From NCBI GenBank assembly GCA_963835575.1, contig CAWIGG010000004.1, positions 1 through 64,000 of the forward strand: a stretch of DNA of 64,000 nt, written 5' to 3'. This document shows positions 44,301 to 50,300 of this stretch, in pieces. Each line of letters opens with the position of its first letter. Positions within the stretch are counted from its first letter, which is position 1. Made by a program: the position numbers. This DNA is from an uncultured Spirochaetota bacterium. GTDB taxonomy: Bacteria; Spirochaetota; Brevinematia; Brevinematales; JAOACQ01.

Positions 44301-47300
44301 AAATTCAAATTGGTATTTATTAAAAGCCCTTAAAAAGTCAAGTGTCTCTATTTTATGACACCTGTTAACAGATCAAAAGATATCTTATTCCAGTGTCAGA
44401 AATAAGAGAGTAATATTGTGGCATAGTATTTGCCACAATACATTAGGATTATTTATGCAATAATTACTCGGTTTTTTAATTTTTTTGGAGATATTAATGC
44501 GAAAGCAAAGAACCTTAAAAAGCAACATAGAATTTCAGGGAATCGGCCTTCACAGTGGTCACGCCTGCCAGGTCTTCGTAAAACCTGCCCCTGAAGATAC
44601 AGGAATCGTTTTCCTGAGTAAAAGCGGAGCGACAAATCAATTCATTCCTTATAATGTTGAAAACGTTGTTGATACACAAAATAATGTTTCTATCAGCAAC
44701 GGCAAAGCGCTTATTAAAACAGTGGAACATTTAGTTTCCGCTCTTTACGCCTTTCATATTGATAACTGCATTATAGAGTGCGGCTCAAATGAAATACCAA
44801 TTCTTGACGGCAGTGCCCAGTCATTTGTTAAAAGCATAATCCAGTCGGGCATTATTGAACAAACAAAAAATAGAGAAGAATTTAGAATAATCAATCCCAT
44901 CTGGGCCACTTTAGACGATAAATTTATTGTTGCTCTTCCCTACAACGGATTTAAACTCAGTTATACTATTTCTTTTCCGGATTCGCCAATCGGAACTCAA
45001 ACCTATAATACAGAAGTGAATACAGAGAATTTTGTAAATCAGATATCAGAGGCCAGAACATTCGGCTTTATTGAAGACCTTGAGAATTATAAGAAAAGCG
45101 GCTTGGTTCTCGGCGTTAATTTCGATAATGTCCAGGCTTACAGTAAAAAGGAAAATAAAGTACTCAATTCATCCCGCTATCATGATGAACCTGTCAGGCA
45201 CAAAATTCTGGATTTAATCGGAAGTCTTGGTCTTCTCAATTTCGATATAAAAGGCTTTATAATCGCTTATAAAGCCGGCCATACCATTGATGTCATGTTT
45301 GCAAAAAAGGTAATGAATATCTCGACCGGCCTCAATAAAATCCAGTCTGATCATTACTATCAAAGAGAGGGTAATTATTACTATCAGACCGCTAACATTA
45401 GCGATAATATTAAGATGCCCTCTTAATTAATTCCTTAATAATATCAATCTTTTTTATAATAACTTAATGCCTGTCAATAAGTTAAAGCAAGAGCTTTATT
45501 AAATCTAATGTTAAAAAGTAAGCTGCAAGTGTATTAAAAAGCACCCGATCCGGGAAAAATACCTTTTTTAATCTCTTTAAAGATTTGACAAACAAGCTAA
45601 GAAATTTTACAATAATGACTCGAATTTTATGAATGGGAGGATTCCATTGGCTACTCATATTAGATTGAAAAAGATTGGAAAATCGAAAAGGCCCTATTAT
45701 CGAATAGTAGTATTGGACAGCCGTGCTCCCCGTGATGGAGCTTATATAGACTGCCTTGGACATTACCAGCCGATTGAAGATGCCATCAACACTAATATTG
45801 ATTTGCAAAAATACGAAGAATGGATAAAAAAGGGTGCAAAGGTCAGTAATATCGTACGGGATATTGTTAAACGCGCTCGAAAAGCATAGTTTAATATTCT
45901 ATTTAATAAGGATAAGGGGTATTACGCAATGAAAGAGAAAGAGATTGTAGAATTAATAGTTACAAGTCTGGTGGACGATCCAACAGCAGTGAGTATTAAT
46001 GTCATTGACGGAGAGAAATCTACTATCTTAGAGCTTAAAGTCGGGCAGGGTGAAGTCGGTAAAGTCATCGGCAGGCATGGCGTTATTGCGAAATCAATTC
46101 GGACTATTGTTAACGCAGTATCAGTTAAAAATGGGCGAAGGGTAATACTAGAAATCCTGGATTAGGAAAATGGATTATCTTTCTATAGGAAAACTTGTTA
46201 AACCATACGGATTAAAAGGTCTGATTAAGACCGATTTTTATATAGATGATTTTAAAGATCTCAAGAGTTTTTCCCGTTTTTATATCGTAAATAAAATTGA
46301 GAACAGTGGTTATAAAGAGATCGTTTTTGAAAAAGTGACTCTGATGAACGGACGTTTTATAGTGAAAGTGGCCGGTTGTTCAGACAGAAACGAAGCGGAG
46401 CTTTTACGCAACAGGGAAATTTTCGTAGACGAGGCAGAGCTGCCGGAATTAAAGAAAGATGTTTTCTATATAAAAGATTTACAGGATTTGGAAGTTTATC
46501 ACAAAGGGACAGCAATAGGAAAAGTATCAAATGTCCTCTTTATAGCGAATAAAACTATGCTGATTGTGAAATTATCAAATAGTAGAGAAATTGTCTTTCC
46601 CTTTGAAAGCAAATATGTAGAAAAAGTGGAATTAAAAGATAAAGCTGTTTATGCTCAAAATATAGAGGATTTTTTTTAAGAGAGATAAACGTGGTAATTA
46701 ATATCGTTACCATTTTCCCGGAAATGATAACGGAATACCTCAAATACGGCATTATTTCAAGAGCCCTTAAAGAAGGGCTTCTCGGAGTAAATATATATAA
46801 CCTGCGGGATTTCGCCATCAATAAGAGAGGCCAGATTGATGATGGTATTTTCGGGCACGGCAAGGGAATGTTATTCCGCCCGGAACCGTTATATAAAGCT
46901 ATATCTGAAATTAAGAACAAGTTTCCCTCGAGTAAAGTCGTTTATTTAACTCCTCAGGGAAAGAGATTTAATAATTTTATGGCCAGGGAATTTTCTAAGC
47001 AGGAAAGCATAATTTTGATTTCAGCCCGTTATGAGGGCATTGATTCGCGTATTGAAGAAATGATAGTAGATGAGACGGTTTCAATCGGCGACTATGTTTT
47101 AACAGGCGGGGAATTGCCTGCGTTAATCACCCTGGATGCAGTAAGCCGTTTTGTAAAAGGTTCTATAAAAGAAAGTTCGGCACAGGATGAAAGTTTTGAG
47201 AACGGTCTTCTTGAGTACAGCCATTTTACAGAACCGCTGGAATTTAATGGATTAATAGTTCCCGAGGCATTAAGAAATGGGAATCATAATGAAATGGCAA

Positions 47301-50300
47301 AAATAAGACTGAAAAGCAGTTTGAAAAAGACTTATTTTAACAGAATTGATCTCCTGTTTGATTATAAACCGGAATTCAATACCGGAAACACGAAAGACGG
47401 ATTAAAGAAACTCAAACGCGAGAATTCGCAAATGGCGGAATTCGTAAAAACTATACAAAATATCTCTAAGGAGTGGAAAGATGGCAGAAGAAACACAGTT
47501 AAATAAAGAGGCCGCGGAAGAGCAGAAACCAGAGGAAAATAATGCTGCTGCAGAAGCTGCGGAAACGGTAATTGCCGAGACCGCTAAAGTTGAAGAGCCT
47601 AAACCTGAAGTGAAAAAAGTCAAAAATTCTATTCTTGAAATTGAAAAATCCTTACTGGCTGAAAATAATAACGCTGCCAAATACCCGGTTTTTACAGCCG
47701 GCGATACTGTTAAGGTTTATGTCAAGATCATTGAAGGCGATAAACAGAGAATTCAGCCTTATGAGGGTGTTGTTATTGCCATCAGGCATGGCGGCGCGAG
47801 AAAAAGCTTTATCGTCCGAAGGATCAGTTACGGCGTCGCTATTGAAAGAGTATTTCCATTTTATTCAACTTTTATTCAAAAGATCGAGCTGGTCAGGAAA
47901 GGCCGTGTCCGAAGGGCTAAGCTCTATTACCTCCGCGGACGTTTCGGTAAATCCGCAGTCATTACCGAAAAAGTATAGAAAATGAAAATTCCTCCTGTTA
48001 TAAGCATTCTCGAATACGAAAAGGATCTTTGGCAGCAGGGATTTCAGCATATCGCAGGAATTGATGAGGCCGGCAGGGGCCCTCTCGCAGGGCCCGTCGT
48101 TTCGGGTTGCGTCATATTCCGCCCCTATGTTGCCCTTGAAGGTGTTTACGATTCTAAAGCGCTAACTCCTCAGAAGCGAAGCGAATTATATGAGATTATA
48201 CTGAATAATTGTGCCGGATACGGCTTGGGTATTGTAGATAATGAAACTATTGATCAAATCAATATCCTTGAAGCCACAAAGCTTTCCATGCTGAAAGCTG
48301 TACAGAGTTTAAAGATAAATCCGGATTTTATTCTAATAGACGCCGTCTCTATCAAAAGCAATATACCTTATAAATCAATTATTAAAGGCGATCAGAAAAG
48401 CTTTACCATAGCCGCGGCCTCTATTATCGCAAAAGTATACCGCGACCGGCTGATGGATAATCTGCATGAAGAATATCCCCATTACCTATGGAATAAAAAC
48501 AAGGGTTATGGCACTGAAGAGCACAGAAAGGCCATACATGAGCATGGATTATCACCCTATCACCGGAAAAGTTTTACTGTTAAGTAATTTTTAATCCAGT
48601 CTGCGGTATTCATATAAAGATAATGATTTGATGACAGGCGATGCGGCGGCATTTTTAATCAACTCTCCCAATGTTTTCTTTGCTTCAATCTTTTTCCCGT
48701 CCTTTATATCTCTTATCGAGTTTTCATATTCAATAAATTCCTTTTCATATGAAGCCGGCTGTCCTTCATTAAGGCCGGGATTATATTGGTCTTCTTTTGA
48801 AAATATATAAGCATGAGACAAAGGCGCTTGAATGCCGGAAATATTTCTCTTATAAGTTAATGATTTTTGAATAATGTTTATCACGGCATTTATATTTTCC
48901 CTATTATTATAATATGTAAAAACCAGGAGCATCGCCTCCAGACTGAACTGCTTTTGAAAATCCTTCATCAGCATATAAGATTCCATTCCATGAATGCCGT
49001 TAGTAATATTATTACCGCATTCCAGAAAGCTCGAGTAAAAAAAGTAAGCATCCGGGGCTTTCATCTGGAACAGCTCTTTCTGGGCATTAAATCTATCGTT
49101 ATTACCCAGCCTGCAGAGAAAGCGAAGTTCGGAAAGATCGTAATTATTCCTGAAAAAGACTTTTTCCAGCCAGTTCAGACATTGTGTATAATTTTCCGTC
49201 CTGAAATAGGAATAAGCCAGAATATAAGGAAGGTCAATCCTTATGTTTTTTAAATTATTTGCATTGGAAGCCGTTTCCCGAATAATCCAGTTGGTCATGT
49301 TCAATACAGCCTCATAATCCCCTCTTATAAAATCAGAAGCGATGGAATACGTCAGAATATCGGGCTCTTCCAGACCATAAACTTTGAGCAGATTCCGGAT
49401 ATCTCTCTGCTTAATCATCCAGCTTCTTATTATATATTCCAAAACTTCTACCTTCGGGACCGTCTGGCGCATCTCACTCATTTCAAGAAATCTATCAAAC
49501 TCATCAATCTTCTGAAATTTTATATAGCTGTTAGCCAGAATAAAAAACATATTCGTATTACTCAGAGAAGTGAGAGCTCTATAAATAAAGTTCGTTTCTA
49601 CAATGAACGGGGCATATTTTTCCACAACAGACTGGAGAGAATAAAATTTCAGATAATTATCCAGGTCTATAGTAAAATCAGTGTCATCAGGAGAGATAAA
49701 ATTCATGAGCATTTTTTCTGAAGCGCTTTCAGCCGAAAGCGGTATTATATTGAGAAATTCCGAATAAAGATTATAGCTCTGCTTTTCAAAAAGAATATTT
49801 TTTATCTCCAGTAATTTATAATTTCCGCTCTGATAGAGATTTGTTAATATTGAGACGGCTCTCATACTGTCTTTCGGATATATTTCAATAGATAACTCAA
49901 TTTCGCTTGATCTGTCGTCTCCATAGGACGCGCTGAAAAGAAAAATGGCAGTCAATAAACAATAGAGATTATATTTAAAATAATTCTTCATAGTAAATAT
50001 TATAAATTGTAAAGAATTAAAACTCAATTCATAAAAAAAGCGGGCATTTTCATGCCCGCTTAACCGGTAATTACATTTTATTTTTCTATACCTCTATAGA
50101 TCATGAATCCATCCTGGATAACAAGGAAAGTAAATGTTTTATCATTTTTATTCTTTCCGGCAAATGCTTTTAAATCATTGATATTTTTAATGGGATCGCC
50201 GTTTATGCCTGCTATGATCTGCCCTTCGGATAAAATCCCATAAAGAATGCTGTCTTCTTTAATTTTTGTTACCAGAACACCGTAATCAGCGCCATTTTGC

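Follow-up and report, generated by a model that had tools for sequence, protein, structure and literature searches.

The window analyzed here, a stretch of 64,000 nucleotides from an uncultured bacterium of the spirochaete class Brevinematia, contains the rpsP operon at a position where most SRP-bearing spirochaetes also encode Ffh. SRP, short for signal recognition particle, is the near-universal machine that brings new membrane proteins to the membrane. The features of the locus are as follows.

43704..44105, + strand: ruvX/yqgF resolvase-like gene (ORF) that closes an lpxA-lpxB run (TIGR00250, 58.4 bits, above cut-off)
44497..45426, + strand: lpxC, with its ATG at 44497 (TIGR00325, 257 bits, above cut-off)
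45427..45646, no strand: AT-rich spacer of 220 bases, where ffh would end (sequence; Rfam)
45585..45613, + strand: TTGACA-17-TACAAT, a putative sigma-70-like promoter for the rpsP operon (consensus 11/12)
45647..45889, + strand: rpsP, encoding bS16 (TIGR00002, above cut-off; sequence)
45929..46165, + strand: gene for a khpA-type KH-domain protein (PRK00468, 88.8 bits, under the cut-off of 106; operon position)
46170..46679, + strand: rimM (TIGR02273, above cut-off)
46691..47506, + strand: trmD (TIGR00088, above cut-off)
47481..47978, + strand: rplS, encoding bL19 (TIGR01024 aligns to residues 58–164)
47982..48587, + strand: rnhB, encoding RNase HII, the last gene of the operon (PRK00015, above cut-off)

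The gene order thus runs from lpxC (44497–45426) to rpsP-khpA-rimM-trmD-rplS (45647–47978) and on to rnhB. A reading of the locus by sequence and by profiles finds no ffh between lpxC and rpsP, nor space for one, and the 220-base spacer (45427–45646) contains neither an ffh remnant by sequence nor an SRP RNA, as an Rfam search of positions 38000–54000 returned no credible match. The promoter site at 45585–45613 is the top-scoring one of the region, with 11 of 12 consensus matches, and its sequence suggests that it serves as the operon's own promoter. Translation of rpsP likely begins at a TTG that follows a Shine-Dalgarno site, the listed ORF beginning at 45629, and bL19 has about 57 extra residues at its N-terminus. 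lpxC (TIGR00325, 257 bits) sits where ffh usually is, yet it is a normal lipid A gene and no remnant of ffh. The operon does follow lpxC directly and lacks ffh, as the initial annotation described; however, the adjacency recurs in just 1 of 15 class relatives read, a member of the same genus, and the identity of the neighbor is therefore incidental.

The absence extends to the rest of the genome and to all three SRP components. The single PF00448 match is FlhF (contig C4, positions 293305–294597), which agrees with the earlier claim that FlhF is the sole SRP GTPase of this bacterium. Two profiles of our own, one made from 28 Ffh and the other from 11 FtsY proteins of spirochaetes, matched FlhF alone across the whole genome, and an nhmmer profile of 20 spirochaete SRP RNAs gave a best E-value of 1.3 over the same range. 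The three usual loci of these genes (before rpsP, beside prfB, and before dnaX) are all assembled mid-contig and are empty, including the dnaX leader, in which no SRP RNA is found. The searches and the empty loci together confirm a genome without ffh, ftsY, or SRP RNA, in an assembly of 7 contigs that is 94% complete.

The class, which the initial annotation names Brevinematia, is monophyletic within Spirochaetota in an RpoB-RpoC tree and comprises 7 families with genome sizes of 1.3–4.9 Mb, and the loss proposed for the whole class holds. The Ffh M domain (PF02978) is found above cut-off in 0 of 43 class genomes, as are the SRP RNA families RF00169 (0/43) and RF01854 (0/43), the RNA searches scoring part of the first-look candidates. 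PF00448 gives one strong match in 41 of the 43 genomes, the two blank ones being 57% and 73% complete. None of the 13 such proteins scanned is FtsY (their FtsY scores peak at 97, the cut-off being 261), and PF02881 is absent from all five genomes searched. Eight weak FtsY-profile matches from one family, which the initial annotation had left open, can now be assigned, as all eight genomes carry FlhF in flagellar operons rather than FtsY.

One could argue that the SRP genes are there but fall into assembly gaps or are too diverged to be detected. The 7-contig assembly at 94% completeness leaves some room for this, as do RNA searches in which part of the candidates were scored and in which RF00169 missed 2 of 17 Ffh-bearing genomes; as a control, SRP RNA was found in 5/5 and 15/17 Ffh-bearing spirochaetes (20/22 together). 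However, three unlinked genes are absent in 43 of 43 genomes, two of which are single-contig; neither of these two has the Ffh M domain or an SRP RNA, and each encodes one strong SRP GTPase. Ffh matches are also bimodal (E-values of 2e-22 or better, or nothing at all), none of 53 families is mixed, and the paralogue FlhF is readily detected. An artefact is therefore extremely improbable, and this reading is already largely refuted. Two weak SRP RNA matches in Ffh-less genomes were rejected because both lie inside ORFs, and of 9 weak extra matches, the 7 that were read are ParA, a helicase, reverse gyrase, or a secretion ATPase.

The remaining GTPase resembles FlhF, the flagellar SRP-family GTPase, in being the lone SRP GTPase and in sitting before an FlhG-type gene, and differs in its sub-cut-off score. 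FlhF is the best family for all 13 proteins scanned, and their scores of 122–157 bits against the curated cut-off of 174 (TIGR03499) indicate a divergent member. A gene for an FlhG/MinD-type ATPase follows flhF in all 30 loci read, with the end of flhA recognized by eye upstream in most. As the last SRP GTPase in 41 of 43 genomes, FlhF might be thought to have taken over the targeting role, but we regard this as very improbable: the class protein has no M domain (PF02978, 43 genomes) and no RNA partner, and its neighbor in 30/30 loci and its best family in 13/13 proteins, though below cut-off, are those of a flagellar FlhF.

Across the phylum, Ffh is absent from 158 of 301 sampled genomes, a broader loss than first proposed. 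The Ffh-less families (19 of 53 sampled, with no family mixed) consist of this class, Leptospira and its relatives, a large uncultured sister group of Leptospira (7 families, 63 of 63 sampled genomes without Ffh), and two single genomes. The description of the class as an SRP-less lineage beyond Leptospira stands in that the class lacks SRP; it is not the sole addition, given the sister group and the two single genomes, and its separateness is favored rather than proven. Where SRP is present, ffh lies before rpsP in 30 of 34 families and 42 of 58 genomes, in line with the earlier remark that it often heads this operon, while SRP RNA precedes dnaX in 14 of 20 and ftsY is close to prfB in 6 of 12. 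In a tree with 5 outgroups, the Ffh proteins of spirochaetes group together (SH-aLRT 95) and reproduce the family-level clades. Ffh is ancestral in the phylum, and the absences are therefore losses. We conclude that the class ancestor almost certainly deleted ffh, ftsY, and SRP RNA and retained the paralogue FlhF for its flagella.

Leptospira and its uncultured sister group probably lost SRP in an ancestor of their own, independently of this class, as every free tree places the class apart from the Leptospira clade. The competing history, in which both descend from an SRP-less common ancestor and the class extends the Leptospira case, is less probable but far from negligible, and it would fit any targeting mechanism. 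A joint clade is rejected by the AU test under LG+F+G4 (p = 0.0003), and the full C20 likelihood prefers the free tree by about 35 units, a likelihood difference alone. The AU test leaves the joint clade standing under SR4 recoding (p = 0.075 and 0.081) and under PMSF with a constrained guide tree that favors the single clade, where the two tie with a difference of 1 log unit; a single shared loss is thus rejected by one of three models, and the class branches are long. A G-to-N change in uS3 and another in uS8 are also common to both groups. We dropped these changes as a signature of common loss, as two shared states do not exceed the count with two SRP-bearing groups, are no commoner than chance pairings, and occur elsewhere, the uS3 change also in unrelated solved ribosomes. 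The deletion junction before rpsP differs as well, with rpe there in 7 of 11 Leptospira-side genomes against 0 of 14 informative class loci, although this is weak evidence because the class junction is scrambled.

The machinery downstream of SRP is kept. SecYEG, SecA, SecDF-YajC, YidC, and trigger factor all remain, with secE and yajC identified by position; SecA, trigger factor, SecD/SecF, and SecG are each present in 5 of 5 genomes and YidC in 60 of 60. The membrane load is about 421 of 3477 rough gene calls with at least 3 predicted membrane helices. SecA is single-copy, all 5 genomes examined for its N-terminal helix region have that region undamaged, and we saw no positive sequence sign of a new SecA function. 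SecB is uninformative, as it is above cut-off in 0 of 5 genomes, an SRP-bearing control included.

SecY is changed in loop C4. None of the 12 genomes of the window's order has a basic residue at positions 254–257, compared to all 36 SRP-bearing spirochaetes and 68 of the 74 outgroups; the docking residues R255/R256 are gone in all 12, while loop C5 (R357) is kept in all 12. As these genomes form one clade, the loss counts as one event. All 4 genomes from the other order of the class, and 22 of 26 on the Leptospira side, keep the C4 tip, so its decay is not required for SRP-less life. The tip is lost in 6 of 74 outgroup genomes, and all 5 of the 6 that were checked have two strong SRP GTPase matches at Ffh/FtsY score; R255/R256 are absent in some SRP-bearing Bacteroidota. 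According to one study, R255, R256, and R357 contact the ribosome, FtsY, and SecA (PMC3575545); because SecA is itself among the partners of R255/R256, losing this pair does not point to SecA specifically.

YidC lacks a ribosome-binding tail. In 15 class members the tail has 9–15 residues and a net charge of −1 to +2, and the medians are 12 residues and 3 K/R in SRP-less genomes (n = 31) against 17 and 5 in SRP-bearing ones (n = 28); a tail compensating for SRP was therefore rejected. There is one full-length yidC per genome, with a small additional homologue in 1 of 16 class members searched. The hydrophobicity of SecY helices shows no shift (1.99, 2.02, and 2.00 across three groups), and that of YidC helices shifts one way in one SRP-less group and the other way in the second. 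Ribosomal protein uL23 has no class-particular change and uL29 has one, neither of them telling.

SecA binds the ribosome exit at uL23. We tentatively favor SecA-led targeting as the likeliest mechanism, in which nascent membrane proteins would reach SecYEG-SecDF-YajC-YidC mainly by way of SecA, with trigger factor and modest translation rates as buffers. Once FtsY was no longer there to dock and direct docking of ribosomes had diminished, the basic C4 tip (R255/R256) of the window's order may have become dispensable and decayed, with C5 (R357) staying in place. A precedent is found in E. coli, where SecA targets RodZ co-translationally, as far as the excerpted report describes (PMC5674894).

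Two other mechanisms would place the burden elsewhere, and both seem unlikely to us. Ribosomes or mRNAs might need no soluble carrier and bind straight to SecY or YidC, as seen for YidC2 of S. mutans and mRNA targeting in E. coli, both documented in the part of the source at hand (PMC10066597). Retention of C5 (12/12) and of YidC (60/60) would suit such docking; however, the single full-length YidC has a short, weakly charged tail (−1 to +2 in the class), the order lacks the ribosome-binding tip of C4, and mRNA targeting through a synonymous uracil bias is not seen (0.243 in membrane against 0.244 in cytosolic genes of this genome, with no excess in secY across groups). A similarly doubtful proposal is that an unrecognized lineage-specific factor substitutes for SRP. 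A novel gene amid the sec genes has been proposed for Leptospira, in the section available to us (PMC4758666), and the order's conserved short acidic YidC tail and remodeled SecY loop could meet a new partner, but no candidate stood out in the loci read beside secA, secDF-yajC, secE, secG, yidC, and tig, and uL23 and uL29 offer no further support. In a bolder synthesis, which we consider speculative and rather improbable, SRP would have been lost at least 3 times in the phylum (in the class, in Leptospira and its uncultured sister groups, and in one further lineage), and the window's order, after losing the C4 residues that dock the ribosome and FtsY, would insert its whole membrane proteome with neither SRP nor canonical ribosome-SecY docking, via SecA or an undescribed factor.

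SRP counts as essential and near-universal, and in print we found few natural exceptions (Leptospira, Dehalococcoides, and SAR86). A large, free-standing genome of 4.4 Mb without SRP indicates that genome reduction does not account for the loss. With several losses next to relatives that keep SRP, one can look by comparison for what permits or replaces it; the class is a further setting for asking how cells cope without it, and the remodeled SecY loop is a concrete, testable molecular handle. As ffh and ftsY are listed among common single-copy markers (PMC3151239), completeness estimates and trees of SRP-less groups may be slightly biased.

SRP-less bacteria are already known, and this class is an additional natural lineage; we found no published report of SRP loss in it. 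The closest parallel is Leptospira of the same phylum, which, in the portion of Fouts et al. 2016 accessible to us (PMC4758666), likewise lacks ffh, ftsY, and SRP RNA and keeps Sec and FlhF. The two differ in that the losses were probably distinct events, that the Leptospira side mostly keeps the basic C4 tip and has the rpe-rpsP junction, that the window's order lacks the tip and has varied junctions before rpsP, and that the class loss spans 7 families with genomes of 1.3–4.9 Mb. The paper also names Dehalococcoides and SAR86, members of other phyla, as lacking SRP. S. mutans also stays alive without SRP, its deletions being rescued by a ribosome-binding YidC in the portion of the account seen (PMC10066597), but there the loss is engineered and two YidC proteins are present, whereas in the class it is natural, with one main YidC and a short, near-neutral tail. 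In E. coli, SRP-bypass suppressors slow translation (PMC8299109), and we identified no suppressor-like change in the class. Together with the SecA-RodZ pathway (PMC5674894), and as far as the consulted parts of these papers go, such bypasses represent the routes most likely used here; in E. coli they are partial or substrate-specific back-ups, while the class would need them for its whole membrane proteome.

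SRP, the signal recognition particle, is absent throughout the class Brevinematia. The initial annotation had claimed that Ffh, FtsY and SRP RNA are missing class-wide, and this holds: PF02978, the profile of the Ffh M domain, exceeds its cut-off in 0 of 43 class genomes (best E 0.06) and in 14 of 14 controls, and the SRP RNA families RF00169 and RF01854 are each found in 0 of 43, in searches that used strict filters and scored candidates in part. At E 10, RF00169 matches none of five class genomes. Two class members are single-contig genomes that are 99–100% complete. The SRP GTPase profile PF00448 gives one strong match in 41 of the 43 genomes, and in all 30 loci read (of the 41) a MinD/FlhG-type gene lies 3' of this single GTPase. 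These loci include all those of a family of eight genomes whose weak FtsY-profile matches had left it doubtful; each of the eight matches is followed by such a gene. FlhF, the flagellar paralogue, is the best family for 13 of 13 class GTPases scanned, with scores still below the curated FlhF cut-offs. Seven of nine weak extra matches were read and are ParA, helicase, reverse gyrase or secretion ATPase proteins.

The window's own genome (7 contigs, 94% complete, with 48 tRNAs and tmRNA assembled) follows the same pattern. Its single PF00448 match is a 431-residue protein encoded 5' of an FlhG-type gene, with FlhF as best family, and profiles built from 28 Ffh and 11 FtsY spirochaete proteins match only this protein; the next-best matches (E 5e-4 and 7e-3) are P-loop proteins. 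Searching the genome with a profile built from 20 SRP RNAs of spirochaetes yields a best E of only 1.3. Among SRP-bearing spirochaetes the SRP RNA lies 5' of dnaX in 14 of 20 and ftsY is close to prfB in 6 of 12. In this genome both sites are mid-contig; the dnaX leader is AT-rich, ~160 bases long and lacks the helix motif, and prfB has no ftsY neighbour.

The window itself holds the locus where ffh might be expected, in the order lpxA-lpxB-ruvX, lpxC, a 220-base spacer and rpsP-khpA-rimM-trmD-rplS-rnhB:

44497-45426, lpxC, preceding the 220-base spacer and then the rpsP operon

Neither ffh nor a remnant of it is present between lpxC and rpsP, no RNA family gives a credible match there, and rpsP has a promoter-like site of its own. 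Immediately 5' of rpsP, ffh is found in 42 of 58 SRP-bearing spirochaete genomes (30 of 34 families; top matches plus hand picks rather than a random sample) and in 4 of 5 outgroups. It precedes rpsP in none of 15 class relatives, one of whose loci stops at a contig edge; the gene in that position is lpxC, rnpA, mutY, uvrD, lpxD, ksgA, ribH, panB or another. Downstream, the rplS product bL19 (47481-47978) is extended at its N terminus by ~57 Ala/Glu-rich residues, encoded in a frame that overlaps trmD. In the same genome uL5 (contig C6:17185-18150), ~320 residues, has a long Lys/Ala-rich N-terminal extension that occurs in the window's genus.

The loss extends further than was first stated. 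Among 301 phylum genomes, each at least 90% complete, the Ffh M domain is matched in 143, always at E 2e-22 or better, and gives no match in 158; families split cleanly into 34 with and 19 without. The 158 comprise 30 class members; three families grouping with a record labelled Leptospirales, which contribute 63 (with the caution that some Leptospira-type genomes have part of their bases withheld, and that in one genus 11 of 17 lack a SecY match as well); seven uncultured families that are the sister of these and likewise contribute 63, which we take to be GTDB class UBA4802; and two further genomes, G043 and G098. All 28 Ffh-less genomes tested outside the class have a single PF00448 match, FlhF-like by score. 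Ffh-bearing genomes have three matches in 19 of 22, two in 2 and four in 1, and a strong RF00169 match occurs in 15 of 17 genomes with Ffh versus 0 of 23 that lack it. In the sister group, Ffh is absent from 63 of 63 sampled genomes, two members being single-contig, and the genomes tested have neither SRP RNA nor a second SRP GTPase (families f18, f29, f36, f39, f42, f45 and f52; genomes include G053, G066, G114, G267, G126, G146, G158 and G303; also G043). Elsewhere, one otherwise SRP-bearing genome has ffh broken across two frames (L044, G061:C2), by either sequencing error or early decay.

SRP is ancestral in the phylum, because in a tree with 5 outgroups the 40 spirochaete Ffh sequences all fall on one side (SH-aLRT 95) and reproduce family-level clades. 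An RpoB-RpoC tree (41 taxa, support 1.0) recovers the class as monophyletic; the class's second order had insufficient data for the ribosomal-protein tree. All free trees place the class among SRP-bearing lineages, apart from the clade made up of Leptospira, its sister group and G043. With 34 of the 41 taxa in the joined-data tests, forcing the class to join the Leptospira clade is rejected under LG+F+G4 (p-AU 0.0003) and is not rejected after SR4 recoding (p-AU 0.075 and 0.081). Under full C20 with 19 taxa the free tree leads by ~35 likelihood units, a likelihood difference only, obtained under differing settings, and under PMSF with frequencies from the constrained tree the two topologies tie. 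A preprint (10.1101/2025.07.04.663154) has Brevinematales branching early, on limited sampling. On balance, we consider it likely that the class lost SRP independently of the Leptospira side. G098 possibly represents a third loss: this single assembly of 50 contigs, with its rpsP locus assembled and ffh absent there, is rejected as a member of the Leptospira side (p 6e-5). It is nested among SRP-bearing lineages and is without Ffh, FtsY and SRP RNA (L184, L158); its YidC has a basic tail of 41 residues, and in the related genome G048 Ffh sits on a long branch and FtsY gives no match. A G-to-N change in each of uS3 and uS8 (L072-L109) is common to both SRP-less groups; that in uS3 also occurs in one SRP-bearing spirochaete and in unrelated bacteria.

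SecY, SecE, SecG, SecA, SecD, SecF, YajC, YidC and trigger factor are all retained, and the membrane proteome is large, with ~421 of 3477 rough gene calls having 3 or more predicted helices. A YidC2-type bypass is argued against by the YidC tails of SRP-less genomes, which are reduced in length and in basic character, although these genomes are kin and so not independent points. We find no synonymous uracil bias. By elimination we tentatively favour a route in which SecA would deliver membrane proteins, aided by slow translation; precedents are described for SecA-led delivery (PMC5674894, PMC8082313) and for slow translation (PMC8299109). The short YidC tail (contig C4:401061-402770 and class loci) is conserved across the order, with acidic residues, and is basic in other spirochaetes. 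The yidC gene and yajC-secD-secF are divergent neighbours (contig C4:397826-402770) sharing ~290 bases, and rnpA and a yidD-like gene sit apart at contig C2:60835-61439. G004 encodes a second YidC-family protein of 224 residues (L244:631-1302), between a nucleotidyltransferase-like and another enzyme-like gene. In family f7 of the second order (L082, L212, L214) the S10-spc-alpha ribosomal protein cluster is dispersed, with rplW-rplB isolated and secY placed amid genes unrelated to it. The presence of a reverse gyrase (L447) suggests thermophily.

Judged by sequence, loop C4 of SecY is the one clear change found among the retained insertion machinery. It reads YAKRQQGRR in E. coli, where R255 and R256 bind the ribosome, FtsY and SecA (PMC3575545), and YANRAAAGG in the window's genome. 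No genome of the window's order (0 of 12) has a basic residue at positions 254–257, versus 4 of 4 in the second order, 36 of 36 spirochaetes with SRP, 22 of 26 Leptospira-side genomes and 68 of 74 outgroups. Equivalents of R255/R256 are missing from the order (contig C6:20753-22072; L072-L081, L149) and from 4 of 6 members of family f36. We infer that the tip decayed under relaxed selection following loss of FtsY. The change should not be over-read: of the 6 outgroup exceptions, the 5 checked all keep two strong SRP GTPase matches. A basic tip is likewise lacking in some Bacteroidota that retain both Ffh and FtsY (L290, L291, L314, L318, L325, L297).

We found no published report of SRP loss in Brevinematales, Brevinema, Thermospira, Longinema or UBA4802, in a search whose coverage mostly leaves out subscription literature. 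The parts seen of PMC3151239, PMC3726837, PMC7203096 and PMC13261788 hold nothing on it for Brevinematales or UBA4802, the class name is defined in PMC10408702, and the orthologue tables of the preprint may record the absence unremarked. Loss of SRP is in print for Leptospira, Dehalococcoides and SAR86 (PMC4758666) and is repeated for Leptospira in PMC10066597. SRP-less bacteria are a known but rare kind, to which Brevinematia adds a class of probably independent origin, with one testable change in the translocon.
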